A stretch of DNA of 62,665 bases, the filler included, from Dugesia japonica (lineage: Eukaryota): NCBI GenBank assembly GCA_001938525.1. It is 6 parts of 6 records of this genome, joined end to end, with 100 filler letters (N's around TTAATTAATTAA, not from the genome) between each part and the next. Parts side by side here need not be neighbours in the genome. Positions count along the whole stretch, not along the records: positions 30,411 to 43,257 come from MQRL01225774.1; 5 more parts are not named here. The stretch is one strand, 5' to 3'. The notes under the pieces are model-generated. The model did not search any database, was not told where the DNA came from, and was given only the letters and a program-made list of their open reading frames with translations. Shown here one piece after another: positions 7,001 through 58,970 of the stretch; within the stretch, counting starts at the first letter, position 1, and every line of letters begins with the position of its first letter. The position numbers and the translations under genes are program-made.

Positions 7001-7199
7001 TAACTCCGAAGAACTTATAGGTCTTTAAAAATTCATATTTGAGGAACTCATTTCACTTGCAAAGCTACTCATTTTATAAAGAATTAATTTGGTTGTATAA
7101 AAAAATTACTACCTTAAAGGTTCTTATTTTGAGTTTTGGTTAGTGTTTAGTTTATATTTATCTATGATTAACCTATGTTTTGGTTTTAAAGTTTAATGA

Positions 7200-8226: not shown

Positions 8227-8274
8227 TTTCTAATAATAAAAAATAATAAAATAAAAATTCAAACCATCAACCCA

Positions 8275-16083: not shown

Positions 16084-19000
16084 ATGGAAGCAGTAACACT
16101 CCAATGTACCATTTGTAATAAAATATTTCAAAAACAATCGGGTCTTGCAACCCATAGAAACAATTGTGGTAGAAGAGGTTATAGATTTAAGTGTGTAATA
16201 TGTAAGGATAGATTTTTAACACAAGAACTACTAACCGTACATTTTAATTCAAATGTTTGTGTGGCACTATATTGTTACGTTTGTAAAAAAAAATTTCCTA
16301 ATCAAGAAAAAGCAAAAAAACATTAGGAAAGAAGAATACACCGAGAAAATGCAGAGGATCTTACAGTTTATTTATTTGAAGAACTTTCAGGAGAAAGACC
16401 AGAGAAATTAAAAATAGATGAATTATTTATAGGTCCCGAATATCAAGATTTTGTTATTACATATTTTGACGATTCTGCAATTTATTTAAGAAGAGATGTT
16501 GAAGTTTTTAAAAGTAGTGAATTTAATTATCAAGATGAGATTGAAAAAATTATTACAAGATTTTTTAAATTTGGAAAAATAATTTATGTTAATATTGGTG
16601 TAGAGGCAAATTATTCAAAAACTACAACAACTAAAAAAATAGAAAGAAGATTTAGATCGAATTCCCTCATTAGAAGATTAACAGTAAGAAATGAAATTGG
16701 AGAGAGAACTCGAGAAATAATAACTGATTTAGTAACACAAATTAATGGCGATAAAAGGGAAAGTAATTGGACTTTAGATTGTGTGGTTTATTATAAAATG
16801 AAACTTGGCATTTATGAATCACGCGCAGGTGCAACATATCAAAAATTACCATTTTTTAAAAAAGGAATTATTAATATTGAAAACCATGATAATAAATGTG
16901 TTCCTTATTCAATTCTAGCACACAAATATAGATATGAACATCCAACACGAGTAAGTCTTTATAAAAAACATTTAAATGAATTTGATTTAACAGGTGTAAA
17001 TTTTCCAGTAACAAATGATGATATAAAAAGATTTGAAAAAAATAATAATTGGCAAATTAATATTTTTGAGATTGAAAAAGTAAATGCAATTCCTGAATCA
17101 ACTCATATTTCTCACACTCTTTGTAAACCAGAACAAAATATGAATAAATGTAATTTGTTACTTTATAAAAATCATTATGTCCTATGTAAAAATTTAAATA
17201 CATTTATTAGCCGTCCTGAAGTTGATAATTATTTATGTGTAAATTGTATGAATGCCTATTCCTCTCAACAAAGACTTGATAATCATCAAGAAGAGTGTGT
17301 TCATCACAAACCAAGAAAAATTGAATTTGAAACAAAAGAATTTCATGAATTTACAGATTTTAATTTTATGATAGAAGTTCCATTTGTAGCATATGGGGAT
17401 TTTGAGGCATGCACTATTACCACCAACAATAAACAAAAACCAATTTCTCTTGGGGTTTATATTGTAAGCAAACATCAAGATTTAATTAAAACGGATTATA
17501 TAAAATTCACAGGTGAAAATGTGATAAATGAATTCATTCAATACATAAAAAATTTAAATTAAAAAGTAGATGAGCTTCTTGAAACAAATTTTATTAAATA
17601 TTACCCAAGAATTTTAAAAGATGAATGTTTTTACTGCAAGAAAACACTTGGGGGAAATCCAGAATAAGTTTACAACTTTTTCAATGGAGAATTTATTGGA
17701 GGAGCTCACGAATTTTGTAATAAGAAATATAAAAACATTAAGAAAAATTTCTTTTTACCATTTTACTTTCACAACGCATGTGGTTATGACAATCGTCTTT
17801 TCTTTAGGGAGCTCATAGAAAAACACCAAGATGATATAAAAGGAATTATACCACACANCGATGAGGAATACATTTCTTTTTCATTTAAAAAAAATCCGAT
17901 TTTTAGATTTTTACAGGATGTGTTCCGCAGACACAACAGTAGAAAAATAGGGACGATATTAAATAAAAATAATAAATACCCCCATTTAAAATCTTTCAAT
18001 TTAAAAGCAAAAAGGATAGCATTTCCTTATGAATATTTAAAAGGAAATAATGTGCAAGAAGTTGAGCAATTATTAAAAAGTAATAAAATACCCACAATAG
18101 AAGATTTTTTCAATGTCTTAAAAAAAAATAAAATAACCTTCATAGAATATAAGGAATTTTTAAAAGAGTTTTTTAAATTAGAAAATATGTGGGAACACAT
18201 GCTTCATTATTTAAAACTCTATGTTTTAATTCTTGAAGATTTCATGGAAAATCTTCGAGAAATTTGTATGAATTATTATGAAATCGATCCGTGTTGTTGT
18301 TACTCAGCTCCAGGACTTACTTGGGTAGCAGGAATAAAATTTACAGGAGCCAAGTTAAGATATCCAAAACAAGAAAGTTATGAGTATTGTTTAAAAAATC
18401 AACGAGGTAGTCGAGGTGGAGTTTCTGCAGCATGCGGCGAAAGACAAGTTTATTCATTTAATAAAAATATAGCAATTAGGAAATTTACAAAATCACAAGA
18501 AGAAGATCTCTTAAAATATTTGGTGCAAGGCGAAGAAATTCCGCAAGAAGTTTTCGAAGAAACATTTTTAAAATATATGGATCAATATTCTTTATATTCA
18601 GCATGCATGACAAAACCTCTTCCTATGGGTGATTACACAGAATTTAAAGAATTAACATATGAAAAATCAACAGATGAGTATAATTTCCTTTATGATGTTG
18701 ATTTGAAATATCCTCCAGAGATTCACGAAAAAACGAGGTATTTTCTATTGGCTCCAGAGAGGATAAATATTCAAAAGGAAATGTTGACTCCATACCAAAC
18801 CGGTTTTAATAAAAAACTTACCAAAGACAACACAAAATTAGCACTTACCCGATTTGATAAAATAAAATATATAATTCAAGGAAGCACTTTAGATTTATAT
18901 CTCAAACTTGGAATGAAGTTGAGAAAAATTTATTGTAAATATAAAGTTCCAACAACTCCATTGTTAAGATCATATATTCTTTTTAACATTGAAAAGAGAA

Positions 19001-19552
19001 ATGAGTCAAAAAGAAATGGAGATGAATTTGGCGATTATTTTTTCAAACTTTTAAATAATTCCTTTTATGTAAAAACTCTTGAAGATGTTTTTAAAAGAGT
19101 GGTCTTGGAATTTGTTACATGTAATAAAGATTTTCAAAGGGTTTCATCAAGATTAAAATTTAGATATTTTAAAATATTTTCAAGAAAATTAGCGGCAATG
19201 CATATGGAAAAAAAGACTGTTAAATATAATAAATTTCCATTTGTTGGTTTTGCTGTTTTAGAATATGCAAAAGAGATTATGCATACTTTTATATATNNTC
19301 AAATGCAACCAATGATTGGAATGGAAAATTATAAAATTCACTACACAGACACTGATTCTCTATTTGTTGAAATTACGGGGCAAGATAATTTTGACAAGTT
19401 GTCAACAATATTTGGGAAAGAACTCTTTCAAATGAAAGACGAAATGCCAGATAGTGAAATTACACACGCAGATTTTATAAGGGCAAAATGTTATGCTTTT
19501 AATTTTATAGTAAAGCTTTTAATTGAGTATTACAATAGACATAAAGGAGCAT
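16084..19552 (+). pseudogene. C2H2 zinc finger-fused Polinton/Maverick protein-primed DNA polymerase B (near full length, few stops, cut by scaffold end)
   Basis: Three zinc fingers (16084-16340) in the same frame as 16783-17562. vOTU-like DNKCVPYSILAH..KNHY; ExoI VAYGDFEA; ExoII YFHNACGYD; pol motifs YMDQYSLY, FFKLLNNSFY.K and HYTDTDSL. Confidence 0.92.
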
Positions 19553-19652
19553 NNNNNNNNNNNNNNNNNNNNNNNNNNNNNNNNNNNNNNNNNNNNTTAA
19601 TTAATTAANNNNNNNNNNNNNNNNNNNNNNNNNNNNNNNNNNNNNNNNNNNN
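19553..19652. other. Artificial scaffold linker
   Basis: N44-TTAATTAATTAA-N44. Confidence 0.97.
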
Positions 19653-22604: not shown

Positions 22605-24095
22605 TTGAATTCCTTGATATATTTGCTTAATAAATTGTTAAAGAAAATAATAATATTACTAAAGATATATTTGAGAAATTACGTCCTAGAGGTTCACAAC
22701 CTGCGAAACTTTATGGACTTCNNNNNNNNNNNNNNNNNNNNNNNNNNNNNNNNNNNNNNNNNNNNNNGATAAAAACAGCTCAATATAAAGTTGCAAAATT
22801 ATTGGTTGATCTTATTAAGACTTTACATAAATCTGAATTTGAGTGCAAAGATAGTTTTGAATTTTTATCCTTTATCACCCAGTATCCATTGGCTAGTAAT
22901 GATTGCTTTATGGTCTCATTTAATGTAACAAGTTTATTCACTAATGTTCCATTAAAAGACACTATAGATTTGTATTGTGAAATATGGAGTGATTTTAATC
23001 CTAACAAATCTTCTTTAGATGATATAGCGTTTTATGATCTTTTATCTTTTGCAATCTCGAATGTTCAATTTCTTCTTAATGATCAATGGTATAGACAGAT
23101 TGATGGTGTCGCGACGGGATCCCCATTAGCTCCAATATTAACTTCTATTTTCTTGTCTAAATTAGAGAGTAAAATAAATGATTATTCTTTTGTTAAACCT
23201 TTAGTTTAGAAAACGTTTTTTTTGATGAAATTTTTCTTGTTTTTGAAAATTGCTCTCAAGTGCATCCGTTTTTGGAGTATATGAATACCTTGCATTCAAA
23301 TATGGGCTTTACAGTTGAAGAAGAGATCAATTCAACTATCCAATTTCTTGATTTGCTTATTGAAAGAAAGAATACTTCATTTGAAACAGAGATATATAGA
23401 AAGAAAACTGATACCGGTTTGTTTACAAATCCTTCCAGTTTTTGTGACATAAAATATAAAAGTAATATGATTAAAAGACTATTTCATCGTTCTTGGTCTC
23501 TCTCTTCTACTTTTATCAAAACAGACAAGAGTCTAAAAAATTTTTTTGACTAACTTCATAATAATTCGTATTCTAAATTGTTTACGGACAAATCAGTTTA
23601 TGAAACTTTCAATAAACTTAATAGTGATTTGTCTCGTGTGGATGCATCTAAGGTTGTAGAAACAGCTCCTAAAATTGTTTTATCTGTACCTTATTTTGAA
23701 GACTTTAGAAAATTCAAACTTTCGATTGAAAATGTCTTAAGAATATTTTAAATATAAAGGTTGTATCCCAATTTCATAAGGTTATAAATATGTCCAAAAA
23801 TAAATCGTTAACCCCTTTAGGATTGGTCTATGATCTGGTCTATCAATTTAAATATAATGGGTGTAACGCCACATACATTGGAGAGACTTCCCGTCATCTC
23901 TGCGCCAGAGTTCAAAAGCATAATCAAAATAGTGGTAATAGTAATATTGTTGAATATCGGAGAAAATGTAGGAAATCAATAGGGATGTCTGAATTTTAAA
24001 TTTTTTGAAGTGGATTTAATAATTATTGGGAGAGAGTGATGTCTGAAGCTTTGTTAATAAGGGCATCAAATCCTAAAATGAATGTTCAGTTAACA
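22605..24095 (+). mobile_element. Penelope-like retroelement (RT + C-terminal GIY-YIG endonuclease), degraded
   Basis: RPRGSQPAKLYGL, SFNVTSLFTNVPL, YRQIDGVATGSPLAP, FLDLLI, IYRKKTDTG; GIY-YIG LVYQFK..CNATYIGETSRHL..RVQKH. Confidence 0.92.
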
Positions 24096-24879: not shown

Positions 24880-27800
24880 ATAAAATAATAAATAATAAAT
24901 ATTCTACTTAACATAAAAATTTATAAAATATTTTAAAAATATCGACTTTTTTAATTCAATGAAATATTTCCTTTTACATAAAAATTTCATAAAATATTTT
25001 ACTTGATAATTTCATTAAATAAATTAAAAATATCGATTTAATTTTATGGAATATTTTATTTTACATGTTTTAAAAATAAATTTTAATATTATATATAAAA
25101 AAATTAAAGAAGGATTTCTCAAATATTTAAATCTTTGAATAATTCTTATATCCCCTCTTTAAAATATTTTTTAATCTTTTCCACATTTCTTTCAATCATC
25201 TTGCCTTCTGTACACTTCAGCAGGTATCGTCTTTCATGAATCTGATTTATCACCTCGTATGGACCTGTATATCTTTCTTTGTTTTTTTTATCTGTTTTCT
25301 ACTTTGGAAATGTCTCTTTGTTGGTGTCAACTCTCCGGATTCTTCATTCTTTACTCCATTATTGAACCATATTTCTCTATGTATTTTCTTTCCGAATATC
25401 ACTTCTGCTAGACTTATCCCCAAAGTCGTTTGGCTTGTTCCATTTAGTGTTTATTCAGTTTCTGTTATTAACTCTGCTCAATTTTTATTCTTTTTATCTT
25501 TTAATGTTGCATTGATGTAATCTCTGATCGTTCTGTATTGTCTCTTTACTATTTCGTTTGTATTATGATGATATGGGCTTGGAAAGCAAATTTTTATATT
25601 CCTTGAATCTTTCATCTCTTTGAAGGCTTTCGATTCCAAAGTCTTCCCACAATCTACATGTATCTCTTTTTNNNNNNNNNNNNNNNNNNNNNNNNNNNNN
25701 NNNNNNNNNNNNNNNNNNNNNNNNNCATCTTGTTTAACTAGGGCTGTTAAGCATATGTATCTGCTAGAATTTATCTATTATGGGACATATATATCATTTT
25801 CTTCCTAAGGTTTTTATTGAATGGCCCACAGATATTGATATAAATACTTTCAAATGGTTCATTACCTTTTAATTTTATAGTTTCCTCCTTTGTTTTAACT
25901 GTTCTTACTTTGTTCATTTGTCATGCTGTACATTACTTAATTACTTTTGACACAGTTTCTCTCAAATCTTCCATATCATATTCATTTTTTAAATAATTTA
26001 TGACTTTTCCTGCGTGCCTGCGTGCATCAATAAATTATGCATTTCTTTTACCATTTAAATTTTCTTTTCTAACGGGATCCATATTTTGCTGTCTTTTGTT
26101 TTTATTATATCTTCTATAATTCGAAACTTTTTACATGTTTCAATTTTCATATCCTTCTTTATCAGTTCAATTTCTTCTACGTTACTTTTACCATTTATAT
26201 GTATCTGAGCCTGATAAACCATTAATTGTTCTTGTCTTTATTTTTCCTTCCTTTGGATTCTTATGATCTGTTAAGCATTGTACACACATACTACAATTCA
26301 TTCTCGACTGCATATCTGCATTCGTGTGTTTTGCATCTTGTCTAAATTCCAATACCATATCTAGGCTACTAAGAAAATTTATCCACGTCTGAAATTGCGG
26401 AGTAATTGGTTTGTTTGTAATTTTCATAAATGATATCGGCTTGTGATCTGTTCTCACCAAAAATCGTTTTCCATACAAATAATGTTTAAAATGGTTACGA
26501 AAATAGTAAATGGCCAATAATTCCTTTCTTGTTATACAATATCCTTTTTCATGAGCTGACATTGCACGTGACCCATATGCAATGACTTGTTATAAACCTT
26601 TTTCGTCTATTTGCGATAAAACTCGCATCTGCATCTAGTACAAACATCTTTTTGATATCAGGAAAACTCAATATCGGTGCTTTTGTTAATGCCTCTTTCA
26701 TNNNNNNNNNNNNNNNNNNNNNNNNNNNNNNNNNNNTTGTTACTTCCACAAAGCTCTTCTAATCTTCTAGCTTTCTTTGAGTAATTATTGATAAATCGAC
26801 TATAGTAATTGCATATTCCCAAAACGCTTCTCAAGTTCTTCACAAATTTAGGTCTTTTAAATTTTTATCGCTTCAAATTTTGTTGGATCATTCCATTCTT
26901 GTCTATGACGTGTCCTAAAAATTTTACTTCTGCTTGCAATAAATGACATTTTTTTGGATAAATTTTCAATCCTTATTCATGAATTCCTTTAAAAACTTGG
27001 TCTAAAATTCTAAAGTGCTGCTCTAAATTTTCTGAAAATATCAATGTATCATCCATGTATACCATTGTTCCTCTCTATCTTCCCAATACTTTTGTCATTA
27101 ATTCTTGAAACGTTCCAGGTNNNNNNNNNNNNNNNNNNNNNNNNNNNNNNNNNNNNNNNNNNNNNNNNNNNNNNNNNNNNNNNNNNNNNNNNNNNNNNNN
27201 NNNNNNNNNNNNNNNNNNNNNNNNNNNNNNNNNNNNNNNNNATAATATTCATTACCCAAATCAATAGTACTAAAATATCTTGACCCACTCAAATTGTCTA
27301 GTATTTCCTCTACATTTGGCATCGGAAATGCCTGTTTTCCTTGATTGCATTCAGTTTTCTAAATTCTAGACATAATCTAACGTCTTTCCTTTTTTTCCAA
27401 ACACATATTAACGGAGTGTTCCATTGCGAATTACACTTTCTAATAATGCCATTGTCAAANAAATTATTGATAGCTTTATCGATCTTATTCTCTAAATGCA
27501 TTGTTTGTCTCCATGGTTTCGTATTTATTGGTTCTTTATTTGTGATTATTTGATGTTTTGCCATTGTTGCTCTGCCGATATTCCAAATATCTGCAATGAA
27601 TATTCTTTTATAAATAATTTTAACTTTCTTCAAGTTCTCGTTTGGCTTGTTAATCGATATTTATTGCTCTCTGTACTCTCTCTTCATCCGATGTACTGCG
27701 TTCATACTTTGCTTCTATATTACAAAGATACATTTCATTGGCCTCATATTTAGTCTCTCTCAGCAGTTTGAATCCAAGCTGTTTCTGTAATTCTATTACT

Positions 27801-28850
27801 CCTATTAGATTTGGATGTATCTGTTTCACGACAATTAATTTAATTAGTTTGCTTTTTTTTCTCGAATTGCATTTCTACTTTTATCGTATCTACTATTTCG
27901 AGCGGACTATTATTTACCTTATATTAAATTGTCGTCGCTTTTTAATATATTGGCTTTTCCCAATCTTTCCAAAATTCTCAAACTCATCACATTAACTNTT
28001 GCTCCAATCAATTTTTACGCCTTGTATTTCAACCGTTATACTTGATCTACCTAGCATCTTGTCATAACTTATCTCTTGTCGCTTTATCTGTTCTATCGTC
28101 AGAATTTCACTATCATCTTCTCCATTTATATCATTGATCATCTTTAGTTAGCCTTTAAACATTTCTTTCTTTAAAAACTTGTAAACCTTTTCTTTTACAT
28201 CATTGCACTCATCTACTCGTTTATCTTTGTTTCTTTTATTTGTATCATTATTTATACTACTTTTACTATAATTAACAATACTGCTATTTTTGGGATACTT
28301 AATTCATTGGGTATTCGTCTTTATAAATATTTGATCCTTCATTACAATAGTGGTCTTTGTCTTCTCTATATACACAATCTTTTCCATTTTCCTCAATTAA
28401 ATTAACGTGACTTCCATTCCTTCTTGTGTAGTTATTCGTATTATTTGAATAATATATTTTGTTGTCATTTCCGAATACTTTTCTGATCTGTTCACTTTNN
28501 NNNNNNNNNNNNNNNNNNNNNNNNNNNNNNNNNNNACAGTCCTCTGTGTGGTGACCTTTCTTGTTGCATCTTGAACAACTAACTTTGGTATAGTCTTTTC
28601 TTAAGTGTTGTTCAGATCCACAAGCATAACACTTTTTTTCTTTCTTGACAATTTCTGCTTACATGAGCTATTTTGTTACAGATCCAACACATATTTTCTC
28701 GTCTTTCGTTGTTTCTGTTCTGTTGCACTCCTACATTTCGACTTTTGTTGAAATTTGTTTCTTCAAGACATTGGCGAACTGCATCTCTGTAGTTACGAAC
28801 TACATTTATTTCTTCAGTTTTTACTTTGTTTATGATATCATCATATTCTT
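24880..28850 (-). mobile_element. Degraded Ty3/gypsy element (gag CCHC, RT, RNase H, IN, PPT, 3' LTR)
   Basis: CSRCNKKGHHTEDC (~28536-28580), IIRKCNSQWNTPL, YMDD (~27050), LDADASF, ELLAIYYF..TDHKP, SPYHHNTN. PPT AAAGAGGGGA at 25151-25160. Confidence 0.9.
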
Positions 28851-28859
28851 TAAATCAAT

Positions 28860-29830
28860 TAGCAACCACGAAATTCATTTAAAAACTAATCAAGAAATTC
28901 AGACGAAAGAAAATCTTAAAATTAATGAAACCAAAAGCAAATTCAGAATGACATCTGTTGATTTTCTTGGATTCAACATATCTTCACAAGGAGTAAAACC
29001 AGTCAAAACTCGTATAAATGTAATAATAGACTGTCCTTCACCAACCACTGGTGCCTCGCAAAGAAGATTTTTAGGAGCAGCTACATTCTACCAATGGATG
29101 ACTCCAAATCTCTCTGAAACAATGGTTCCTCTTCATAATCTGTTAGCATCATCGAACAATACTCACAGGAAGCTACTATGGACATTTGAGCATAAAAAGG
29201 CTTTCACATATATCAAAGCAGCACTAAATCGAATTACAAATATGACTACACCTGATTCAAATAAAAAGTTAATATTTTAAACGGACGCATCAAATATTGC
29301 AATTGGAACCAGTCTAAATCACGAAGTCAGCGACAAACTTGCACCTATCGCATTTTTCTCAAGAAAATTAAACAAGACAGAAAAAAGATATTCAACGTTT
29401 GACCGTAAACTCTTAACCATCTATCTATCCATCAAGAATTTCAAACATTTCAAGGCAGCGAATTCACAATTTTAACATATTACAAGCCTCTGCTATACAT
29501 TCAATCGATGAAAAACCCTACAAACAGGCAATAGCGTCATATTGAATTTATCAGCCAGTTCTCATTCCAGCTCAAATACGTGAAAAGATCAGAAAACGTC
29601 GTAGCTGACTTCTTATTCAGAATTCCAGAAGAACTATTTGAAGGCAAAATATTTTCAATAAGAACGGATGAATTGATCAAAGAACAACAATCAGACGCTT
29701 CACTCAGACAACATCACTCACTAAAAATAAAAAAGATCGACGGAATCTTGACAGATACTTCCACACAACCCAGAATTTTGCTACCAATCCGATACAGAAA
29801 TACTGAGTTTGACAGATTGCACCACATTAA
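28860..29830 (+). mobile_element. Second-family Ty3/gypsy pol fragment (RT thumb, RNase H, start of IN)
   Basis: VDFLGFNISSQGVKP, RRFLGAATFY, TDASNIAIG, IAFFSRKLNKTEKRYSTFDR, ENVVADFL.R. Confidence 0.85.
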
Positions 29831-30057
29831 GTATTTTCCTTGTTTTACTAAACTTTATTGGAGACCACCAGTCGAGAATCAGTGATTTATAGAATTCATT
29901 TTAATGTAAAATATATTGTAAAATATATTATATATCTATTTTGTAAAATATAAGTAAATTCGATATTCATTTAATAAGTATTTCATTGTTATGTTAATTC
30001 TTCATTTTATTGATTTATTATTCAAAGAATATTTTTGCAAAACAAGTAAATACTATT

Positions 30058-32569: not shown

Positions 32570-32910
32570 CAATCGATTCATATTATATTCCAAGTATTCC
32601 CTATCAAACCATAGAGCATATAAAACACCGGTTTTGCATGTTACGCAAGTGACATCATGATTATGATTCCGTATATGTTCCGAATGGTTTGATGGCTTTG
32701 TACCAACTTCATATAAATAAGATTAATGCATACACTGTAGATCGATGTTCAATAATTCAAAGCCTCCGTTGGTGTGAGTTTGTGCCAGGTTACTAAATGA
32801 AAAAACAATTAATTAATTTTTATAAATAGTAAAAATAGACTTACACGTTTTGCTACGTTATAAAATATACAAATGCTAAGCAGTTTAATAATAACTGCGA
32901 GGTGGAACAT
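32570..32910 (-). pseudogene. Possible decayed host gene: signal-peptide exon plus short-chain collagen C4-like domain
   Basis: Exon 32910-32845 MFHLAVIIKLLSICIFYNVAKR|GTAAGT; acceptor TTTTCATTTAG at 32793; downstream frame THTNGG..LQCMH*SYLYE..HNHDVTCVTC..REYLEYNM resembles HNHDVPCAVC..REY.GYLM. Exon phases do not join cleanly and there is an internal stop. Confidence 0.35.
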
Positions 32911-34589
32911 TTAAATATTTCGTTAAAACAAATCAAATATTTAGATATTAAATATTAAATATATTGAATGTTGAATATTAAATATCATTAAATTCTATAT
33001 TTTAAATTTATAGTTTTAAAAAAATATATAAAAATCATTTAAACTATTATAGTTTAGTATAGTTTAATAAAATTCAGATATTTCCATATTCTATTCGGTA
33101 AGTAACAATGCTAGCTAAAGATTTACTCTCATGTAAAGTTACTTCAACATAAAAACCTTAAAATATGGAAATCTAATTTTTACTCAATTGAAGAGAAGTA
33201 TGACATGAATTAAAGATATTGAATCGAGATTATTAGATTATTAAAATTATGCGGAAAGTGATAAAGTGAATAAAAAGTAAAGAGAGATATTTTTAAGAGA
33301 ATTTAAAGATTAACGAATAATTATTTCAAAGAAATTAAAGGAATAATGTAGAGAAGGATTAAAACGATATGAATGGTTAAATGATATGGAAATTATAAGG
33401 AATTAATGAAATAAATTGACTAAGTTGGGTAAGGGCCGCAAACATAATAACCAGAATTAATGGAGAAATTGAAACGATGAAAGGGATAATAATTTGAATA
33501 ATGACGAGTAGATGAAACAAGTAAAAGGAACCAAACGAATTAACGAATGAGTTAATGTAGATTCAAGGAGTAATCTGAAACATAATTAAATATAACCTAT
33601 ACTTATCAAGAAGTGTAGGATGGGTATCGGGACAGTCAACACAGATAGACCCAAGCGAGGTACTATCGAAATCTTAATCGACAAAGGGACGGAGAAGGGG
33701 ACTATGGCGTTATAAGAGGTTCTATGATTACTGTGGTGTCCAGCAGGAACTACTCACAGGAATATTTATTTTTTTAATTGAAATGTTTAGAGTTAGAAAC
33801 TATGAGAGAGAAATTGCAAGTGTATCGAAATATCAGAAGTGGGTTTGAAAGAAAACCTTGAGTTTGAAAGAAGACTCGAAGTAATCATAGATATTTGAAA
33901 GTACGTTATAACGGAATCGATTTTGGAAAATAGGGCCCGCAATCAGTAAGCTAGAATCCGAAGCCTGATCAACTTCCGAGAGGATAGCCCTAATTATTGT
34001 CTACTGACCAAGAAAAGGACGTTATTATTGACTAATGCTAAGAAATCTTCGAAGTAATTGTAGTGAAAGAAGATCTTCTGAAGATATGCTTGAGACTGAC
34101 TTCGAGCTCTACGGCTGTAGATAAGAAGTACTGCTCTAGAGAACTAACTACTGTGGATAGTTCTCAGGCCGAAAGAATCACGATACAAGATTTATCTAGT
34201 AAAGATCAGTCAAGATTCACAAGGAATCAATGAAGGTGTCGGCAAAGTTCAAGCATCCGTTAATGACAGGTTGACCGCCTGCTGCACTCAGGTTGGCGTG
34301 GATTTGCTTTGAAATCCATTCCCTACAGCTATCTGCTCATAGCTCTACAGAATTTTAATTAAAAAGTGAAACAGTCCTAGTAGAATCAGTCGAAAGTGAT
34401 TCGGAGAAACTTGTGATTATTGTATTTCATTTTTGTTGACTAGAAGGTACACCAGTTGCCAAAATTGGAATCAGTTTAACGAGAGATAGAAACCCCGGAG
34501 AGTTTCAACGGTAATTTCATATCCGAGCAGCACGGATATTACAAATCAGTGAAATTTCACATTTTACTGAGATGCTTCACATTAAAGAG

Positions 34590-34805
34590 TAGATTGGAGC
34601 TGAACCAGATAAAATAGACTCGCAGCTACTCTTGACACATTAGTTGGAGAGCCTGGAACTGAATTGAAATAGACTACCAGCTACTCCTGAAATAGGAAAC
34701 TGTCGATTTAAAGATAACCGAAGCTGAAAGAATAGACTATCGGCCACTTAGATATATTGAAGGATGGAAGCGATAATTGGAGGTGAATCTAAATAGCCTA
34801 CCGAT
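34590..34805 (+). repeat. Degenerate ~60-bp repeats in the leader of the gag-UBL-G element
   Basis: Four units containing GGA(G/A)CTGAA..AATAG(A/C)CTA..(C)AGCTACT. Confidence 0.55.
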
Positions 34806-35426
34806 TGCAAAAGAACTAACAGAATAATGTTAAACGATATTTTACCGTAATAATGACGAAATTTACAAAATAATTATAGTTAAGTATGAACTCATGATAT
34901 AGGATATTGGACAAATCGAGGAATAAAATTTAAATAATATACATCGTGAGAAGAGAAACAAGAAATAGAAAATGCAGAGCAGCAATCAGGAAAGATTGTA
35001 GAAATTTTGGAATAATAATTTTGTAGTAATAATGTGAAGTGATGATGGGATAAATATGGCCAAAGTAGAAATGAAAATAAAATAAGGTATGATGATTAAA
35101 GAGAAATGAAATCGAGTATAGATAAAAGTCAAATCGCGGGTAAAACCTAAGGAATTAAACGAGATAGATTGGTAGATAATGTATGCAATATGATATACAT
35201 GACTAATTAAAAGTGTGTAAAAATGTGAACTATGTGAACTAACAAAGTATAGGAATTAATAAATTAATAAATTGCGTAATAAATAATAAAAAGTATATGA
35301 ATAATAAATAATAATAAAGCGCATGTGTATTAAAATTAAACAAACTGCTAATAAGAACTAATGTTAAATGAATAAAGAAGTGATTTAGAGTTTAGAAGCC
35401 GGGAGACTATCATATTTTACTTTCAG

Positions 35427-36880
35427 GTTATTCAATAAATCAAACGATCAAGAACTCAATCAGCTAATTCATCATTGCGAATTCAGCAGACAGATACAAT
35501 CTACGAAATTCGACAAAAAACAAGAAATCTTATTCAAGTGATAAACCACATTCCGCAAAGAAAAGAAGAACAGCATCATTCAATCCACAAAACAGAAAAC
35601 TATTCGATCAATCATTCCTAACAGAATCAGGAACTCCATCAACTCCAACAAGATCTACAGATAATTTAACAGACCTAAACGAAACTAGCGAACCAGATTC
35701 AAATCCAATCGGCGATTCAAAATACAATTACAGTACAATATCATTGAGCCAATCGAATTCAGGAAGAACAAGCCCTACGACAACAGTGAGATCTGAAGAT
35801 ACCAGCGTGGAAACAATCTATCAACCATCAAGTCAATTAAACACGTGTAATAGTAACAGTCCAGAATCTAGTGACGAATCAATTATATCAGGAAACTAAA
35901 CGTATAACCAAGACACGACGATTAGTCCTATTGAGAAACCGAAGGACGACAGCCTAAGTGGAACTAAAGTTAAACATGGATCAGAATGGAAAACAGAGTT
36001 CAATGAAGAACATTATTCGAGCAACCCGGATAAATTAGAGAGTTTCATAGCGGCATACGAAATTCATAGAAAGACATGGAGATGGAGTGAGGAGAGAGCA
36101 GTAGAGCGATTGCCATTATATTTAAAAGAATCGGCGAAAACGATATATTGGAACAAAGCAAAACTAGTCAAAGATGGCGTAAAAACATGGAAGGATGCTT
36201 AAAAGATCTTAGAAGACAACTTCAAACCATTGACATTACAAGGAAACATTACATTGTCCAAGATTTTACAGCTAGACGACAGATGAAAGATGAATCTTTG
36301 CAAGCTTATGCAATAGAATTGTGGAGACTCGGAAAACTAGCCCTCGAAGACGAGGTGCAAGATAAACTAATTCTTGGAATATTTATTCTTGGAAGGTCTC
36401 AGAAACTCAGAAGTGCGAAAGTGGGTTAATTTAATGCAACCAGAAACGGTGGAACAAGCTATAAACTTAGCCGGAGTATCACAAAAAGTAGAAACTACGC
36501 CGAAACTAGCTAGTATCTTTAAAATTGAGGAGCAAGACTCAGGAGTGAAGAAGATCCCGAAGATAACGAATTGCATACCAGGAAATACGTAACCTTTGCT
36601 AAAATCATTGACTCCGGGACAGAAGACAATTGAAGAACTCAAGAAGAGGAGGTGGCAATAGACAAAATAATTGGCAACCAGCGAGTAATCAAAATTGCTT
36701 TAACTGTGGGGAATATGGACATATAGCCAGAGAATGTCGTTTAGTGTCATTAAGTTGTACATTATGCCAGAGAATAGGACATACAGCAGATCAATGTTAT
36801 ACATCAAAACCCATAGTATGTTATACTTGCAACAAACCGGGTCATACGAGTAGAAATTGCTTCAGGAATACGAGAGGGAG
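35427..36880 (+). pseudogene. gag: Ty3/gypsy-like Gag (capsid + three CCHC zinc knuckles), frameshifted
   Basis: LESFIAAYE..WRWSEERAVERLPLYLKESAKTIY, RRQMKDESLQAYAIELWRL, FLEGLRNSEVRKWV..PETVEQAINLA; CFNCGEYGHIAREC, CTLCQRIGHTADQC, CYTCNKPGHTSRNC. Confidence 0.9.
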
Positions 36881-39800
36881 TGGGTATGGAAATAATAGCC
36901 ATGGCTTCAATAACAAATCAAATAATCAAGCAATCGAAAACATGATACAACAGAATAATAGCTTACGACAGTAATTACAGAATAACCAGAAGCAGAGTCA
37001 ACAGCGAGTTAACATGATGCAACAGGAAATGCAAAAACATGAAGCAACCCAACAAAGAATATATGATCAACTCAAACAGAAACAAGAGTATTTACAACTA
37101 CAATGCGAGAAGCAGCGGGTTGCGCAGATGAGATTAAACGAGAGAGCGGCAAACCACAATACTAACAATCAAGGTCGAGTGAATATGATGCGACTAGTTA
37201 ATGAAACAGAAGTAAAGATCAAAAAGAGTGAACAAACATCGGTAAAACGAAGGATAGAAAGTAAACTCGATCTGATACAAGGATTCAAAGGAAGGATCAA
37301 CAGAAAGACTTATTGGAAATTAATGAATCACGTTATGGAACTAATGGAATGTAGCCATCTAAACCCAATTATCAAGGAGGAATGGCAGCCGGTGATCTGG
37401 GAATACGAAAACGAAATGAAAGAGCAAACGAAGCCAGACGATTTTATAATTATGATAAACTAAACAACTAAACATTTAAAATAATCAGACAAAAAAATAG
37501 CACCGTGTCAGGTCATCTTGCAAAACGATACGGGGGGAGGACTATTGTGTGCTATTTAAAACGAACAAGTATTAGAAGAGCCATTAGACAACTATGTAAT
37601 ATGTTCAAAGACGAGAGTAATTGAAAAGGACCATGTTACCGTTAAAAAAATGGAAAACTGCATAAAAGAGATAAATCTGATGATGACGGGAACAGAAATA
37701 AAAGCTCCAAAAAGCAATCAAGTGTTAATCGCACAAGTAAATATGATGACAACTAAAGATATATCTGAGACTGAAGATGAAGTAGATAATACAATCAAAG
37801 AAGAAATCGAGACAATCGAAGTCTTACGAAAGGTAAAAAGAGCTATCAAGGAACCTATCAAAGATGGAAATGATTCGACAAAAGCTATCAACAAAATATT
37901 CGCGATAACACGGAATTTTGAAAATAAATTAAACAGATGACGTTATTGGATGACAATGAATCATTTGGTAGAGTTAACGGAACCAGGCCATGTGGATATT
38001 ACAACGAAAGAGAAGTGGAATCCGTTAATCTAGGAATACAAAGCTGAGGTAATAAAGGAATCTCAAAGCAAGGATTATTTTATCTGGGTCGGAGAATCAA
38101 TCAAGCCAGTAACAATAAGCGAAAAGATATGGAATTTAACGAACTTACAACAAATGACGAAATACCATCGTCCAAGAGTCGTAAAAATCAAAGGATTAAC
38201 ATTCCGAGATCCACTGGAAGCTTTATCAAAATTAGAGTGGCCAAAACCGATAACGGAATATATCATACATACTCCAACAATGATTGTAGATCAANGTGAT
38301 GTTGATGAGCATGTATATACTTATGGAGTCAAACCAGGATGGGAACTAGAAGTCAGAGTAACTGACAAAGAGCGAGTGTATAAAGATAAAGAAAAATTAT
38401 GGCCGCACTTAGATTTTCGAGCAACTGAGGAAATTTTGAAATCGCCGTATAAATGTCATGAGTTATATTGTTCCGCTTATTAAACATCTGAAACTCAAAG
38501 AACAACAGTATCAAATTATAGAATCAAAAACAGAAGACAACAAACCTGGTACGAGTCAAGGAAGATTATTTATGATAAGATCAATATCAAACAAACTATT
38601 GAGTAGAAATAAAAACAGTCCAAAACAGGCAACAAGTATGACTGATATTAGTATGGGTGAGTTCAGTGAACCACCAATATCCACGGACGATAATTCAGAT
38701 CACGAATACTATCAGAATGTGGTAACGGTAGAAAAAAGAAACCCTATTTCAAAATGACAGAATCTCGAAGCAGTCGTACTGGAGAATAATGAATATAGCA
38801 TGGGATGAACATTATAATCAGCTGATGAGGGGAGCAAAACACAGTACACACCCAGAATTAATCGATATGTACAAAGGGAAGGTATTAAAGGAAACAGTAG
38901 GAGCAGATTTTGGGGTTAAAATCAATTATCCGACAATAAACGATAATTTAGTGATAACGATGCAAACAAAAATAATTAAAAAATTCAAGACGACAACAGT
39001 CGGTGAATTAAAAGATATATTTAATGAATTGCCACTAGAACGTGGGTTGGAAAGATATAGAATCATATGTGATTACATGAAAATTGAACGAGATAAATTG
39101 AATAATCGAGATATTCATTTAATTGAGTTCTGGTTAAGACCTGGAGAAATTACAGAATTAACGTTAGAATATGATGACGGACAACCGAGAAGTGTTGATA
39201 AATTTTCAGTCAGTAGAATGAGAACAAAGATGAGAAAAGTATATCAAGAGGAAATAGATAAAATGGATTATCTGAAATTAGTACATGATGATCAAATAGG
39301 ATTAACAATAACTGTGGGAAATGAAGTGGAACCATGGAAATTGTTGAAATGGAATTTAGCGAAAATTGGGCTAATAATACTAAATAATTTTAATTATATT
39401 AAAAGTAGAGAAACAAAAGAGGTAATAGATTGAATCAATCAACTAGGCTTAATATGCGGGGAACATTTCAATGAAGTAGTAAGAGCAATAGTCTTATTGC
39501 ATGCATCACAGACGCCAAGACAAGTAGTGAAAGTGACAGCTCACTTTCCAGATGAGTCAAGTAAAGAACTCAAAGTAAAAACGATGACAAAATGGGAGAA
39601 ATTTATAAAACAGATACTAAAGTATGTGAATAAAGAATCGCTAATAGACAAAAAAAATATTTCAAAAGTAAAAAGAGAAGATATTGTAATCTATTGCGGT
39701 GAGGAAACCACAGAAGATCTTGACAGTGATGCAATCAAATTGTCAGGTATATGGCCAGGTCACATGATGAATATATACGTATTTGCATCGGAAGATGGAG

Positions 39801-41779
39801 ACAGAAATTTGTTTACCCGAAGAGGAATAAGAGAAAGTTTATGTTGGAAAACGATACAGTATTATGTGGAGAATATGAACCCATTAGTGCCATGGAGATT
39901 ACAAATACACTCTGAGGAATTAAATTTCGAGTTTACGGAAAAAGTGACAATGTTACGGTCAAGGCAAGCATTGAGTCGTCAATATTGATCCAATCAGGAG
40001 TTAAACGGATCAGTAGAAAGGTTAGCAATGATGATACATACAAAGATAACAAACGACTATGCATCAGAAATAGTGAAACAATTTATATCATTAATTAATG
40101 AAACGGATATTCCGAGGGACCAAGTTCAGAAATTAGCAAAACAGATTCTGAAAAGTGATTTATCAATAAACGAACTAAGAGACCTGACATTTGAAATATC
40201 ACGATTTAAGGAAGAGTGTGAGTGGAGGCCATCACAGTTCAGAGCAATCATTAAAAAATGGTGAGATATAGAAACAGATGAAATTGAACCTCGACAATAC
40301 CGCTTTCAAATAATAGATCCTAAAGGATACGAAACTAAGATAGCCGGTCTGGCATACGAAACAATTGGAGTTATAAAGGAGAGAATACCGTACGAACCAC
40401 CATATATTTTGACATTAAACAATAAAGAATTGCTAAACGATGACGTAATTGGAACATTAAATATTCGATGGGAGATGTCGAACAATTTTTATATTAAACC
40501 CGAAGCGAAAAGGAAATTAGTGAGGGAAATGTTTCCACAAGGCAAAATGAAGTCTACAGGAAAACCAATCCACCAAATCACAAATTATCCACAACCAATT
40601 TTTATTGACAGCAAAGAGGGTACCAGTTACATGACCCCAAAATCGATAAAGAGTAAATCAGCGAAGCTAAAAAGACATATAATCTCCAGAGAAATTACGA
40701 CAAAAGAAGATGATATTATGAAACAATTATTTGGATTATCAAACGAAGAGGATGAAGAGATACAAATAACTCATTTTGAACCAGCAACGATGACAATAAA
40801 ACCAGTGAATAAGGAGAAGACAGTGAAAGATAGATTCAATCCTAGAGAAGTAGACTATGATATCAATAACAAAATACGGTCACAACCCAGAATATCAGAA
40901 GGAACAAAACAAAAATCACCATCATTAATGGAATTCGAGCAAAACGCAAGGACGCCAATTATACCAGAGTACGAATTTGGAGAAGAAAATATAGGTCCAT
41001 CAGCAGAATTTGAAGAGGAAATGACGACAACAGATAATAAAATCGAAACTACGGATAATCAAGAAGAAACAACAGATCACGAAATATATCAAAAAATAAT
41101 GGTCGATGTAGAGACAAAAATGGAACGAAAGGCGCGTGGACGACCAAGAGGATCTATTATGAAAAAAGGAGCAACACGTCGAAAGCCGACATAAAAGGAA
41201 CAATAAGTAGCAGTATCACAAGAGATCATGGAGAATTGTGAACTATCAGAACTATCAACGGAAAAAAGGATGCATCACGTATTACTAATATTATATCCAG
41301 AGTTAAAAATGTGGATTGGAAATACAGTATTATCGGCGGAGTGTAAAAAAATTGCAGCAATATTGGAACCTGTAATACAGAAACTACCAGCATTCAAGTG
41401 GACAGGACTGAGAGAACGAGATAAAGTAGAAAGTGCAGTCGAAAAAACATTGGGAGAATGTCCAAGCGCGTCGAAAATTGCAAAGGCATTGGCATACCTA
41501 TGTAAACAGACACAAGCGGCGCTAGTACATCGTAATACAAGTGCAAAAGTAAAAATGAACATGTTGCCAATCGTTGAAATAATATTTGATAGAATTGAAC
41601 CACTTATTTTGAAAATCGGAGGATGGTCAGCGTCGATGGAAAAATTAAAACCAGAAGCGAATCTACAACGAAATTTAGCAGAAAGAGCGCGATTGTTAAT
41701 GAAAGATTATATAGACGAAATAGGAATGGAATCTAACAGCAGCACAAGAACGAATACGAGGGCAAAGGGTATACAATCA
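36881..41779 (+). pseudogene. Non-pol polyprotein middle region: Q-rich coiled coil, VNMM repeats, tandem ubiquitin-like domains, AT-hook, helical domain
   Basis: ORFs 36630/37014/37650/38154 share one frame and 38789/39497/40028/40409/41228 share another, separated mostly by isolated stops. UBL-like segments at ~38170-38365, 38912-39175, 39521-39785 and 40292-40500; RKARGRPRGS at 41126-41155. No YxDD, RNase H or DDE motif seen. Confidence 0.65.
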
Positions 41780-43257
41780 ATGTTAATGTTATTAACGATA
41801 ATGCTTCTGATGGGCCGAGGTGCGGCGATAAAATGGATATTGGAGAAACAGTTTGCTCACTAGTAGACGTGGATAAATGTCCAGAAGCAAATCCAGAAAA
41901 ATTAGAACCAGTTCGAAAGGCAATACCATATTTTGTGTATCAGGAATCAGATTATTACAAGACAAAGGTGAGAGAATGTAGAATGACAAAGACAGTTTTT
42001 GTGTATTATTGCGGAGCAAGAAGCTATACAGCAATTATCGAAACTGGACAAGAAGTGAAACAGATTTATCTAACCGGAGAGCAATGCGAAGAAGGATTTG
42101 TAACCGAAAAGATACGAGTAGCTGAAGGAAAAATTGTTGGTGCTAAAAGTGGACAGATCATGCAAACAAGAATATTCGCATCAGGAAGCATATCGGATGA
42201 ACATGGAACATTTACTCATGGCACCTATACTGTAAATGGGGTAGTCACCAGTTATGTGGTAGCGATAGAAAGTGATCGAGTCAAATTAAAGGAATATGAT
42301 GCGTTCTTCGATACAAAAACACAATTGATGAAAATGTATACCATGTGTAAAGCGTCAGATATTTCATGTGATACGGNAATGTCAACTTTAGTATATAATG
42401 TTAATCATCAAGAATGTGCAATGACATTTCTAAAAGAAACCGCGTTCAACGAATATCAAGGTAAAAAAGTTATTGAAGTAGATGAGAAGGAAACGATACC
42501 ACCAGAAGGTAAGGTGGATGAAGCAATGAAACCAAAAACAGGTGAAATACACTGGGTAGAAACTACAGTAGTCTTAATGTCAACTGACAAAAACAATATG
42601 ATACGATTAATACGAAAAAAAACAAAATCAAAATGTGGAGAATTAGTATACGAAACGAATTACAAAGGTTTGTGGGTATCAAAAACGATATTAGAGAGAG
42701 CTAAAGCAGAAATCACACTAGAGGATAAGAAGTTACATCTCTATATTAATAATAAAGTGGATCATCTGTTTCATCTAACACAAACTTCAATAGAGAAAAT
42801 ATATCAGGATCTAGTGTGGAACGATTGCACATTAAAAAACAAAATATTAAAGACGAAATTGGCAAAAGCAACTGCAAATCCAGATAATGTATCACCATTA
42901 TTCCGATAGAAGAAGGGCAATTTGGACGAATTGTGGGAGAGGTAACGTTCAAATATCGATGCAAAAAGGTGGACGCAACGTTGGCACCAATAGAACATAA
43001 TAAATGTTATAATGAAGTGGAAATCATATATAACAGAGAAAGACGATTTGTGCAGCCAATCACTAGAGTAATATCACCAAGAGGATTTGTCCCGAACATG
43101 ATAAATTGTTTAAACCTATTTGGACCTTACTTTAAACTGCATAACAATAAATGGGTACGATTTCTAGAGAGAATTCCAGTAACAGGGGTCAGAAATTTTT
43201 CACGATTACAATTAAAAGGTGGAGCAAAATTTACACCGTTAAATGTAGCCGAAGGTG
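41780..43257 (+). pseudogene. env: Chuvirus-type / gB-like (class III) envelope glycoprotein ectodomain, truncated by scaffold end
   Basis: Signal-like MLMLLTIMLLMGRGAA; SLVDVDKC, VREC..YYCG..SY, KCGELVYETNY..L, LYINNKVDHL..IY..L..NDC, G.FGRIVGEV..Y.CKKV, KCYNE..I.YN..FVQPITRVI. This Cys/motif spacing matches chuvirus G and retroelement-borne homologs as I recall them. Frameshifts at ~41830 and ~42900. Confidence 0.8.
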
Positions 43258-44192: not shown

Positions 44193-44765
44193 TTAGGTTA
44201 AGGAATATTAATTGCGTATTTTAGTAATATATTTAAATCAACAAAGAAATTTTTTTTAGAATGTCATTAAATAATGTATTCTCCATTGAACTGGACAACT
44301 TGTCACCATCTCTGTGATAGTGCTTCAATCCCTTTGCGATAGAGCTCGTGTTTGTTTTTAGTCGAAAAAGCTCGAGATCGCTTCTTTGCTTGCTTCTTCA
44401 TTTTTTAACTCCTGTCTATTCAAATTATTTTGAAGACATCGAAATAAGTAATAATCCGATAGAGCCATGTCGGGAGAACATGGTGGATGTGGCAAGACTT
44501 CCCATCCAAGCATCTGTATTTTTTCCTGAATCAATCGAGTAGTATGTGGTCTGGCATTGTCATTTAGTAGGATCACATCTTTTCTCTTTGTTAAGATAGA
44601 CCTGATATTTTGACTCAATCTCTCTAATTGTTGAAAATAGAGTTCAGCATTTATAGCAGTGTTCTCTTTCAACAGTTCCCAATGCACAATACCATGGATA
44701 TCCCACCAAACAGATTATAACACCTTTTAGAATGTGCACCTGGTTTGGCAGTTTGTAAGGGTTAC
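44193..44765 (-). mobile_element. Mariner transposon 3' portion, inactive
   Basis: VWWDIHGIVHWELLKEN, LLNDNARPH, LPHPPCSPDMALSDYYLF; terminal TA-TTAGGTTAAGGAATATTAATTGCG. Confidence 0.9.
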
Positions 44766-46859: not shown

Positions 46860-49030
46860 CCTCCTTTGTGCTCACACATGGTTCCAGCGATTTATTTGGT
46901 CGGAATTCAGATGTTCGATTAAGATCAATGAAGTACAAGGTGCCATGGTATACCCGGATGACAAATTTGTAGTTTAAATTTAGATGGAGGAATTTTTTTT
47001 GAGAATATAGAAATTAGTTTAGACGGAAAATTGGAAGCAAGTTTGAGAATAAATTCGGAAAAATGCTCTTTTACGAAATTGAAGATAAATTTTTAGGCCA
47101 CATAATTAGGGAAAGAGGAATTCAAACAGATCCAGTGAAAGTAAAAGCAATCAAATCTTTCGGAGAACCAAAGTTTGTAAAGAAACAGCCTAGTTTTCTC
47201 TGCATATGCAACTACTACTGGACGTTTATTAAAAAGTATACGATGAAGGCTAGGAAATATGAAAAATCATACAGTGGTCAGCAGAACACAAAATTGGTTT
47301 GGTCGGCAGAATTGTCGGAGATTTTTGAAGGATAGAAAACAGAACTGACCAAGATTTTAGTGCTTAGGTTCCCAGATTTAAGAAGAGAATTTATCTCAGA
47401 TATGGATGCTAGTTTTATTACTGTTGGTGCATTTTTCTCATATTAGAACGAATATATGAAAAAACGTTTGATTACATACGGTTAACATGCCATGTATAAT
47501 CATTAGAATGTTTATTGTATAATCAGGAAGAAATTTCAAGAAGTTTATTATTTTCGCTTATATTTTAAGCATTATCTCTATGGGAAACATTTCAAGCTGA
47601 GAACGGATCACGAATTAATTATGTTTATGTTAAGCATATCAAAATTGGTTACTAGTCGTTTACAAATGTGTATTAATTTTTTAAGTGCGGACATCAAGTT
47701 GGAATAAGGTTACTCTTCACGGGAATGTGAATATACTCAGCAGATTGAATTATGACAAATGTGTGCATTGTCAGATGCAACATAAGAACGCGAAAGACAG
47801 AAAAGAGTAGATGAGGCTGCTAGAGACTGAGTATTGCATTTTAAGGGTTAAAACTGAGATTTATGATACAAGAGGAACTATGGTAAATAAAGAAAAAACG
47901 TGATTAACAACGGAGTAATTAGATTTAGTAGATTCGCGGGTTTTTATATCATTCAGGAGCGGAAAAGACGGAGAACTACATATATGCGGGAAATTCTGGA
48001 TACCGTTTGAGACAAAGAATGAAACTTGTATTTAATGCTAAAAAGTGACGACTGATACAGTGAAAGTTAATGAAGCTATGGTTTTGTCGGAAAATTTTGA
48101 ACCGTTTGAGGTGACTTTTGTTGACATCTGCGGACCTTTAAAAGAAACAAAATGTAGAAAGAAATATATTCTAGTCATAATTGAACAATGTTCGAAATAT
48201 ATGAAACTGATAGCGTTAGTTAGAAAGGACGAATTAACAATTCGGCAGAATATATTGACAGAATGCAAATAGAGGTTTGGATGCTAGATCAAGTTGCTGC
48301 ATAAGATTCAAAGCTAGAGAGATTAAAGATTTTACAAAAATGTTAAAGTTGATCTGGCATGTGACGAGTCCTTACCATCACAAAACTAACGGGCAGATTA
48401 ATCCATAGTTCGAGTAGGTACCGGACTTCATGAAGTGTAGAATACAAGAAATGTGAACATTTGATTGTGCGAAATTATTGTCAGAAATTGAGTTTTCAAT
48501 AAATAAAAGTAAACAAAAAACGATTGCAAGTGAATTTGACAGAAATGGTTTTTGAATAATAAATCAGTCGAGAAAGATGTCAATCAAAGAAAAATGAAAA
48601 TTGTGCAATGAAAATAGAAAGACATAATTCGTATAAGTATCTGACAAGAAAGAAATTCGAGGTTGAGGTTGAAGCAAAAGATAAAGAGGAAAACAGATAT
48701 AAAGGCCTCTACGAAATAGTGGAGAAGCAATGTGTTAGCCAATCAAGATGAGAAGGAGCTCACAGGTAATGTCGAAAAATTTAACTTTCTTGAAAAAGGG
48801 CTGAAGGCATTGTGTGATTTTCGAATGTTTTCAATTATCTTTCTTAGTATAAAATAAATTAAATTTGATTTTTATTTAAAATTAAAGAAACATTTGTTTT
48901 AATATTATATGCAATAGATTTTTTATATAAGTGTTTAAATTTAATTATTTAATTTTATTTGTAATTTAGAATTTAAATTTAATTGGTAGATAAGCATTTT
49001 ATATTTGTCGATTTTACGAAGAAATTATTT
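46860..49030 (+). mobile_element. Heavily degraded Ty3/gypsy pol with 3' LTR remnant
   Basis: KFLGHII..GIQTDP, SFL.ICNYY, DMDASF, HYLYGKHF.LRTDH, FEVTFVDICGPL, SPYHHKTNGQI. Confidence 0.85.
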
Positions 49031-57829: not shown

Positions 57830-58970
57830 GCATATAAATGGAACATTGATGCTCTCATTTAACAAAGCATCGAATAATCGCTAAAGATGGTCCAATCAAC
57901 ATAAAATAGTATCGTCAACAAATAAATCTTGAAAAGAAGATTGAAGGGGCCGTCAAAAATCTGATTAATAATAGGATAATCTGGAAGTGTAATTCGTAAT
58001 GGAATACGCCATTAATCTGTGTTTATAAAAATGTAAAAAAGGATATACGATAATTCTTAGACTTTAGACAGCTCAATGCAAAAACAGAAAGACAAAGTTT
58101 TCCTATGCCAAATGTGGACGAAATGCTAGATGCTTTAGAAGGCACGCAGTATTTTAGCTCAATAGACTTGGGAAATGCATACTACCAAGTGGAACTCAGT
58201 GACGATTCTCAAGAAAAGACGGCATTTTCAACTAAACAAGGGCAATTTGGTTTCAATAGAATGACTTTTGGAATTGCAGCATCACCAGCTACGTTCCAGG
58301 AAATGATGAATAAAGGGATTGGTAAAATAACAGGAGCGATGATATATCTAGACGATATTCTCATATTTACGGAAACAAAGAAGCAACACTATGAAATAGT
58401 CAATAAAGTATTAACAGAAATTAAGAAGGCTGGTCTAAGAGTTAATCCGGAGAAATGTCAATTCATGCGAAAGGAGATCAAATTCTTTGGACACTTTATC
58501 AGTAAAGAAGGTAATAAAATAGATCCATTGGAGTCTAAATCAATGAAAAATTTTGCAACTGAACATGGAATTACCCTCAGGTTTTTGAGTCTATATCATC
58601 ATAACACAAATGGACAAATCGAGAGACAGTTTAGAACTATGTGAGATAGGATAAATGCGAAACTTAAAGAAAGGAAAACATCAAATTGGGCGGATATATT
58701 GTCAGAGATCGTATATACCTTGGATGTTACAAAACAGAAAACCATCGGGAAAAGCCCTGCTGAAATAGTATCGGAAAAGAGAATAAGTAGAGAGAAATAA
58801 TACGAAACAAATTCTTAAAGAAAGCATAAATAACAAGATGAAAATATATTGACCAATAGACAATTCAAGGTTGGTGATGAGGTCTTAGTGAAAGTTGAAA
58901 CCAGAACCAAGATTGTTTTGAAGAACCCTATAAGATCAAAAGAGAAGTTTACGACAGATACCACCATCTA
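57830..58970 (+). mobile_element. Ty3/gypsy pol with internal deletion (RT joined directly to IN C-terminus)
   Basis: FPMPNVDEMLD, IDLGNAYYQV, IYLDDILIF, FFGHFI..DP, then immediately SKSMKNFATEHGI..YHHNTNGQIER. Same family as 12480-15600. Confidence 0.9.

Follow-up and report, generated by a model that had tools for sequence, protein, structure and literature searches.

A decayed Burro-like Ty3/gypsy element in Dugesia japonica and the probable release of its Env from a polyprotein by signal peptidase

Among the described systems nearest to the element reported here are the Burro/GYPSM1 giant Ty3/gypsy elements of dugesiid planarians, in which env lies in frame between BCL2 and PR and whose ORF1 lacks MATH in D. 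tigrina, according to the sections used here (Arkhipova & Yushenova 2019, PMC6431247). GAG-ENV-POL "errantiviruses" with an HSV/gB-type ENV have been described from Platyhelminthes, Nematoda and Bryozoa, and six S. mediterranea families are listed, Smed_errantivirus_1-6 (Chary & Hayashi 2026, PMC13524379, in excerpt). In Atlas virus and other nematode Belpaoviridae, Env is situated within a single stop-free Gag-Pol-Env polyprotein, and the glycoprotein precursors of the related phleboviruses are cut by cellular proteases (PMC9094657, in excerpt). The mosquito BEL/Pao element Anakin carries a chuvirus-like G (PMC7642597, in excerpt), and the portion of PMC10084718 consulted has no bearing on processing. 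BURRO1 is reported to rise in smedwi-2 RNAi planarians (PMC8532177, in excerpt). When env shares a reading frame with gag before it and pol after it, a topological puzzle arises, as a lumenal fusogen and cytosolic Gag and Pol have to be accommodated in one chain. In the sections of PMC6431247 and PMC13524379 used here, this puzzle is named but left without an answer.

The element in the window and its state of decay

The window, a stretch of 62,665 nucleotides of Dugesia japonica DNA with filler included (GCA_001938525.1), consists of AT-rich, repeat-laden eukaryotic contigs with N-run linkers between them. The last part of the contig at 30411-43257 holds a decayed multicopy element of the Ty3/gypsy type (35468-43257), on a plus strand that is A-rich from about 33000 to 43257. 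The element carries, in order, a Gag with three CCHC knuckles, an accessory region, a Bcl-2-like domain, a hydrophobic stretch at 41780-41812 and a Monjiviricetes/gB-type glycoprotein (G). Because the assembly linker at 43258 truncates the element within G, ahead of the transmembrane segment, Pol and the 3' LTR are absent from the window. The features are as follows.

35468..36592, + strand: Gag region with a Ser/Thr-rich N-terminus ahead of the Gag core, interrupted by stops and changes of frame
36696..36860, + strand: three CCHC zinc knuckles (nucleocapsid); PF00098 E=1e-16, three CX2CX4HX4C motifs in the translation
36975..37463, + strand: Gln-rich, coiled-coil-like segment, by eye
38732..41833, + strand: long accessory reading frame of 1034 codons with 5 isolated premature stops
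about 38903-39181, 39515-39790 and 40292-40510, + strand: ubiquitin-like-looking segments, by eye only
41129..41149, + strand: AT-hook-like motif KARGRPR
41435..41644, + strand: core of the Bcl-2-like domain (BH1-BH2-like part, GGW motif), from a homolog profile
41750..41827, + strand: predicted internal signal peptide, with n-region ..RAK.., h-region 41780-41812 and c-region GRGAA
41827..42906, + strand: ectodomain of the class III (Monjiviricetes/gB-type) glycoprotein, first part; first conserved motif missing here
42888..43256, + strand: glycoprotein ectodomain, second part, past a frame break; cut by the linker at 43258

The copy in the window is dead and unable to make the protein; its coding path changes frame in several places and meets at least 12 premature stops. 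In one DNA run, 4258 contigs aligned over 32900-43257, of which 396 were at 99% identity or above, 887 at 95-99%, 1674 at 90-95% and 1301 below 90%; this spread across identity bands points to a large family of diverged copies, contig depth not being equivalent to copy number. Summed DNA contig depth peaked at 33592-34283, along with a few mostly one-direction RNA reads, and this region is possibly the LTR or leader of the element.

Other mobile sequences were also observed in the window. Fragments at 4169-8229 and 16327-19608 resemble, by eye, protein-primed DNA polymerase genes of the Polinton/Maverick type. On other contigs, 44358-44714 (- strand), 47018-47335, 26188-29885 (- strand), 58054-58644 and 22634-23553 are transposon fragments, comprising a mariner-type transposase (PF01359), several Ty3/gypsy pol fragments and a reverse transcriptase of another class, the latter two assigned by eye.

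Two pieces of the Gag region, 35900-36199 and 36091-36426, matched the N-termini of the G-bearing polyproteins P0008 and P0006 (blastp E 9e-5 to 2e-3 against a set of 150 proteins). The Gln-rich segment had no Pfam match and, by eye, is a candidate counterpart of an Smc-like coiled coil; a MATH domain likewise found no Pfam match in the window element. None of the three ubiquitin-like candidates had a relevant match in Pfam, the PDB or the Atlas search database. The KARGRPR motif resembles an AT-hook, and 4 of 14 homologs have similar motifs ahead of G.

G had originally been proposed to be an RNA-virus-related fusogen; its assignment to the Monjiviricetes/gB-type glycoproteins is supported by PF24664 (Monjiviricetes_fusion), which matched in two pieces, at 41737-42906 (E=1e-24) and 42888-43256 (E=8e-11), both above the cut-off. 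A second frame break lies inside G at 42888-42909, and by blastp the second part matched the same homologs as the first. Five Cys are invariant in a 17-row alignment of G. Only three PDB matches were obtained for G, all to herpesvirus gB and none significant (E 0.8-1.3). As a record of such a fusogen in this host lineage, the locus is not new: G groups with retroelement-borne rather than stand-alone G, and the excerpts of PMC6431247 and PMC13524379 already contain the layout.

The junction between the accessory frame and G

Right before G we found RAKGIQSMLMLLTIMLLMGRGAAIK at 41759-41833, with R at 41759, the h-region at 41780-41812 and K at 41831-41833, in a frame that stops at 41861; G then follows in another frame, in agreement with the basic-hydrophobic-small pattern that had been noted at this point. 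No 11-mer in the 1034-codon frame 38732-41833 is more hydrophobic than the h-region (KD 2.76); the best window that does not overlap it reaches KD 1.80. The n-, h- and c-regions of a signal peptide and the small residues at -3 and -1 are present in the window copy as a sequence pattern, with predicted cleavage after the Ala at 41825-41827, a geometry found in 14 of 14 close homologs. An ORF at 41228-41863 had been reported upstream of G; it does have the signal-like end but is no separate gene, being the tail of the frame that runs from 38732 with five stops.

That G resumes in another frame was likewise correct, but a small indel alone does not account for the break. In the relatives, mature G begins with a [YF]DC motif, of which none of the three frames over 41790-41880 has a trace; the conserved motif was thus lost at the break, so that more happened here than a slip of one base. 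On either side, the adjoining residues (small-small-I-K on the upstream side) have kept their resemblance to the relatives, placing the break within about 41821-41833. We considered the Cys at 41821 in the G frame as the conserved first Cys and rejected it, since no [YF]D comes before it and the next motif is not at the right distance.

Upstream of the h-region, a Bcl-2-like profile built from four homologs, with the window sequence left out, scored window ORF 41207 at 20.4 bits (E=6e-6); the next-best of 211 window ORFs reached 4.1 bits, and 0 of 975 scored shuffles attained 20.4 bits (maximum 8.5). A five-row profile, A1, matched Bcl-xL structures (E=2e-4). Four relatives have the Bcl-2-like domain directly before the h-region, and all four match PF00452, the best at E=8e-5, which is below the curated cut-off. 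The window protein alone had no Pfam Bcl-2 match, and as a single sequence the ORF had no match in the PDB or the Atlas search database. Word-index protein searches, a weak method where proteins are this divergent or very long, returned no matches. Structure models were of low confidence (pLDDT 45 for the single-sequence fold, 56 for the alignment-based one). Foldseek with the pLDDT 56 model found no match at E<=1e-3, and Bcl-2 proteins ranked 2, 5, 6 and 8 in the PDB fold search and first in BFVD, none significantly.

The relatives were collected by a HMMER search, which yielded 161 G homologs at E<=1e-3. Among the best 150 of 161, which were analysed, 113 aligned into the first 45 query residues, 91 of them with the motif, and 29 had at least 100 in-frame residues upstream of G. 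Within a close group of the 28 best G matches (E<=3e-24), half (14/28) have an in-frame extension of 100 residues or more ahead of G, and the remainder are fragments or start near G. The records are largely unnamed gene calls on contigs, taken as unspliced genomic ORFs. According to the original prediction, the internal signal continues the upstream reading frame, a claim against which a stop or splice acceptor ahead of G in intact copies was to count. It withstood the comparison with intact relatives, since 14 of 14 read in frame through the h-region into G, the continuity resting on relatives at 27-39% identity to the window G. Single ORFs join CCHC, G, PR, RT, RH and IN in P0009 and P0027 (Pfam and motif scans), CCHC, G and PR in P0004, P0006 and P0019, and G, PR, RT, RH and IN in P0002 and P0016. 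P0009, a 2627-aa CCHC-G-PR-RT-IN retroelement polyprotein, is assigned at NCBI to a Flavobacteriaceae MAG under the label hypothetical protein; it is probably animal DNA binned into a bacterial genome.

The signal was evaluated by hydropathy (11-residue window, KD>=2.0) and a simple (-3,-1) rule. All 14 close homologs had such a window ending 5-13 residues before [YF]DC, in each case the most hydrophobic of the upstream part. The h-region, about 11-15 residues long, is followed by a polar c-region, and the (-3,-1) rule held three residues before [YF]DC, at one shared site, in 13 of the 14. Stand-alone G proteins with ordinary N-terminal signal peptides (e.g. P0057, P0065, P0071 and P0110) display the same geometry. 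Among homologs with long upstream regions, an adjacent h-region occurred in 16 of 29 overall and in only 2 of the 15 distant ones, the rest of which have other N-terminal extensions, and the pattern is therefore limited to the close clade. At the other end of Env, the main hydrophobic segment lies 525-551 residues past the motif in 11 of 11 full-ectodomain homologs. Nine of these continue past the transmembrane segment to a protease motif and two end soon after; P0007 and P0012 stop some 40 residues or fewer from it and have no in-frame Pol. A second, weaker hydrophobic segment (KD19>=1.5) follows the transmembrane segment in 2 of 11. N-glycosylation sequons in the homolog ectodomains were few (1-4), with no enrichment.

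The match of G to the Monjiviricetes fusion family, together with a break in the window copy exactly at the junction, could also be read as chance juxtaposition, a chuvirus-like G having inserted with its own signal peptide beside an unrelated retroelement ORF. However, in a quick tree of the window G and 84 of the 150 listed homologs (those covering most of the region), the window G fell into a 13-row clade (SH-aLRT 96) where G is for the most part borne on polyproteins; besides the window G it has 12 rows, 10 of them with at least 161 in-frame upstream residues. Stand-alone G proteins, about 20-27% identical to the window G, formed a separate clade with support 100. The order of Bcl-2-like domain, h-region and G is common to the window copy and P0003, P0007, P0008 and P0012, and the matches of the window Gag to P0006 and P0008 are to the same set of proteins. 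Chance juxtaposition is already largely refuted by the homolog profile and the tree, and we consider it highly improbable.

Proposed processing of the polyprotein

We propose that the element is a decayed Burro-like Ty3/gypsy whose intact form probably encodes one Gag-accessory-Bcl-2-like-Env-Pol polyprotein, with Env probably freed by host signal peptidase. The original interpretation of release by signal peptidase is thus largely supported. The domain order up to Env was observed directly in the window, while intact relatives show the continuous frame, the h-region and one main transmembrane segment; judging from the sequence pattern, signal peptidase is likely to cleave at this site. Gag and the accessory domains would be made in the cytosol. 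The hydrophobic helix would then open ER translocation and be cut by signal peptidase after the small residue at -1, about 540 Env residues would enter the lumen, and the Env transmembrane segment would stop transfer. PR-RT-RH-IN would lie back in the cytosol, tethered to the Env tail until freed by the element's own protease, which would also release the Gag domains. Such alternating topology is known from flavivirus and bunyavirus polyproteins. A conserved internal signal and one stop-transfer helix would give the topological puzzle a concrete, testable answer, with a predicted N-terminus of mature Env.

Drosophila gypsy env is made from a spliced mRNA, and a similar origin for most of the Env here, from a spliced or subgenomic mRNA in spite of the continuous frame, would turn the same helix into an ordinary near-N-terminal signal peptide. 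We regard this as unlikely, and the evidence points both ways. The window h-region contains in-frame Met codons and 5 of the 14 close homologs have a Met at the h-region or at most 15 residues upstream, but the remaining 9 have none nearby. A single polyprotein would yield as much Env and Pol as Gag, an awkward stoichiometry for a particle; yet divergent relatives all retain the upstream fusion. The best of 322 acceptor-like sites in the element, 35426 (35412-35426), precedes the gag frame by about 40 nt, and splicing may therefore occur in the element. By contrast, no strong acceptor-like site was found within 41200-41830, where the best of 22 YAG sites has 7/12 pyrimidines and no site within 200 nt of the h-region exceeds 5/12.

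The gag frame has no ATG at its start, and the long 5' leader may hold an intron. RNA was drawn from three raw runs, of which 6-26% each was read, giving a depth that stayed below about 5 in each direction almost throughout the element; no RNA junction into env was seen, at a depth below 2 there that makes this uninformative. Two RNA peaks were put down to cross-matching, one at 36696-36736 where 40 nt match another transcript and a minor one near 35281-35318 in AT-rich sequence.

Were the helix to stay uncleaved, as a signal-anchor or as the membrane anchor of the Bcl-2-like domain, Env would remain two-pass or be freed by another protease. The helix sits 30-61 residues past the BH2-like GGW, a distance past BH2 at which Bcl-2 tail anchors lie. 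The gB-type ectodomains described in the excerpts of PMC13524379 are flanked by a signal peptide and a transmembrane segment or by two transmembrane segments, which would also suit an uncleaved helix. Nevertheless, the h-region is short, a polar c-region follows and small residues stand at -3/-1 in 13 of 14; homologs without a detectable Bcl-2-like domain retain the same signal, and the geometry equals that of the stand-alone G signal peptides. An uncleaved helix thus appears quite unlikely to us.

Cleavage by signal peptidase could, tentatively, be combined with one helix performing two jobs, first serving as the internal signal of Env and then, once cut, holding the Bcl-2-like domain in the membrane by its C-terminus, within a multi-pass polyprotein of the flavivirus kind; we see this as conceivable rather than probable. 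The helix would then yield a tail-anchored anti-apoptotic mimic and tether Gag to the budding membrane. If the cut helix does stay as a Bcl-2-like anchor, particle assembly would be linked to the control of host apoptosis.

Additional features were observed downstream of Env in the relatives. P0002 (from about 2480), P0009 (about 2250) and P0016 (about 2775) have a second signal-like helix after the integrase, followed by a Cys-containing domain, fibronectin-III-like by eye in two of them, and a further transmembrane segment. This post-integrase cassette is apparently a second membrane protein released the same way, and, should the two-job reading of the helix be true, this signal-ectodomain-transmembrane arrangement would work likewise. 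In the predicted cytosolic tail, 25-45 residues past the Env transmembrane segment, homologs P0002-P0027 share a conserved W-x-L-x-x-G/A-(C)-C-P-like segment, which may be an amphipathic helix bearing palmitate. Protease-like motifs are repeated in tandem, twice or three times, in several relatives.

Comparison with described elements

By the published description, as far as the sections used here extend, the window element is like Burro in the features visible in the window, namely a Gag with three CCHC knuckles where Burro has two or three, a long accessory region, a BCL2-like domain and a mononegavirus-type env, in the same order up to env (PMC6431247). The Burro env is in frame between gag and pol, whereas the frame in the window is broken and continuity is seen in the relatives. 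Burro has a MATH domain and, upstream of BCL2, a Ubi2/SUMO-like domain; neither was confirmed in the window element, which has by-eye candidates for the latter. The PR-dUTPase-RT-RH-IN, LTRs and 25-30 kb length of Burro fall outside the window; close G homologs carry PR-RT-RH-IN downstream. These sections of the Burro account contain no discussion of a signal peptide or of Env release.

Gene order and Env class are the same as in the GAG-ENV-POL gB-type elements of PMC13524379, as excerpted. The window G is about 43% identical to that of Smed_errantivirus_6 (67/157 ungapped columns, hand count); since Smed_errantivirus_1-6 are clearly different sequences, the window element looks like another family of this clade. 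Signal-peptide or transmembrane flanks are noted in these excerpts, and polyprotein processing is not treated. Atlas virus, like the relatives of the window element, has its Env inside one polyprotein, but differs in belonging to the BEL/Pao lineage and in having a class II phlebovirus-like Env at the C-terminus, after Pol (PMC9094657, in excerpt). Anakin shares a chuvirus-like glycoprotein borne by a retrotransposon, but is a Pao element of insect hosts (PMC7642597, in excerpt).

In a literature search whose coverage left out most subscription journals, we found no report on signal-peptidase release or on a dual-use Bcl-2 anchor in such elements. As the copy is dead and the gene layout is already published (PMC6431247 and PMC13524379, in the sections used here), the gain is mechanistic and modest, the new part being the processing model and the candidate dual-use helix set beside these two accounts.
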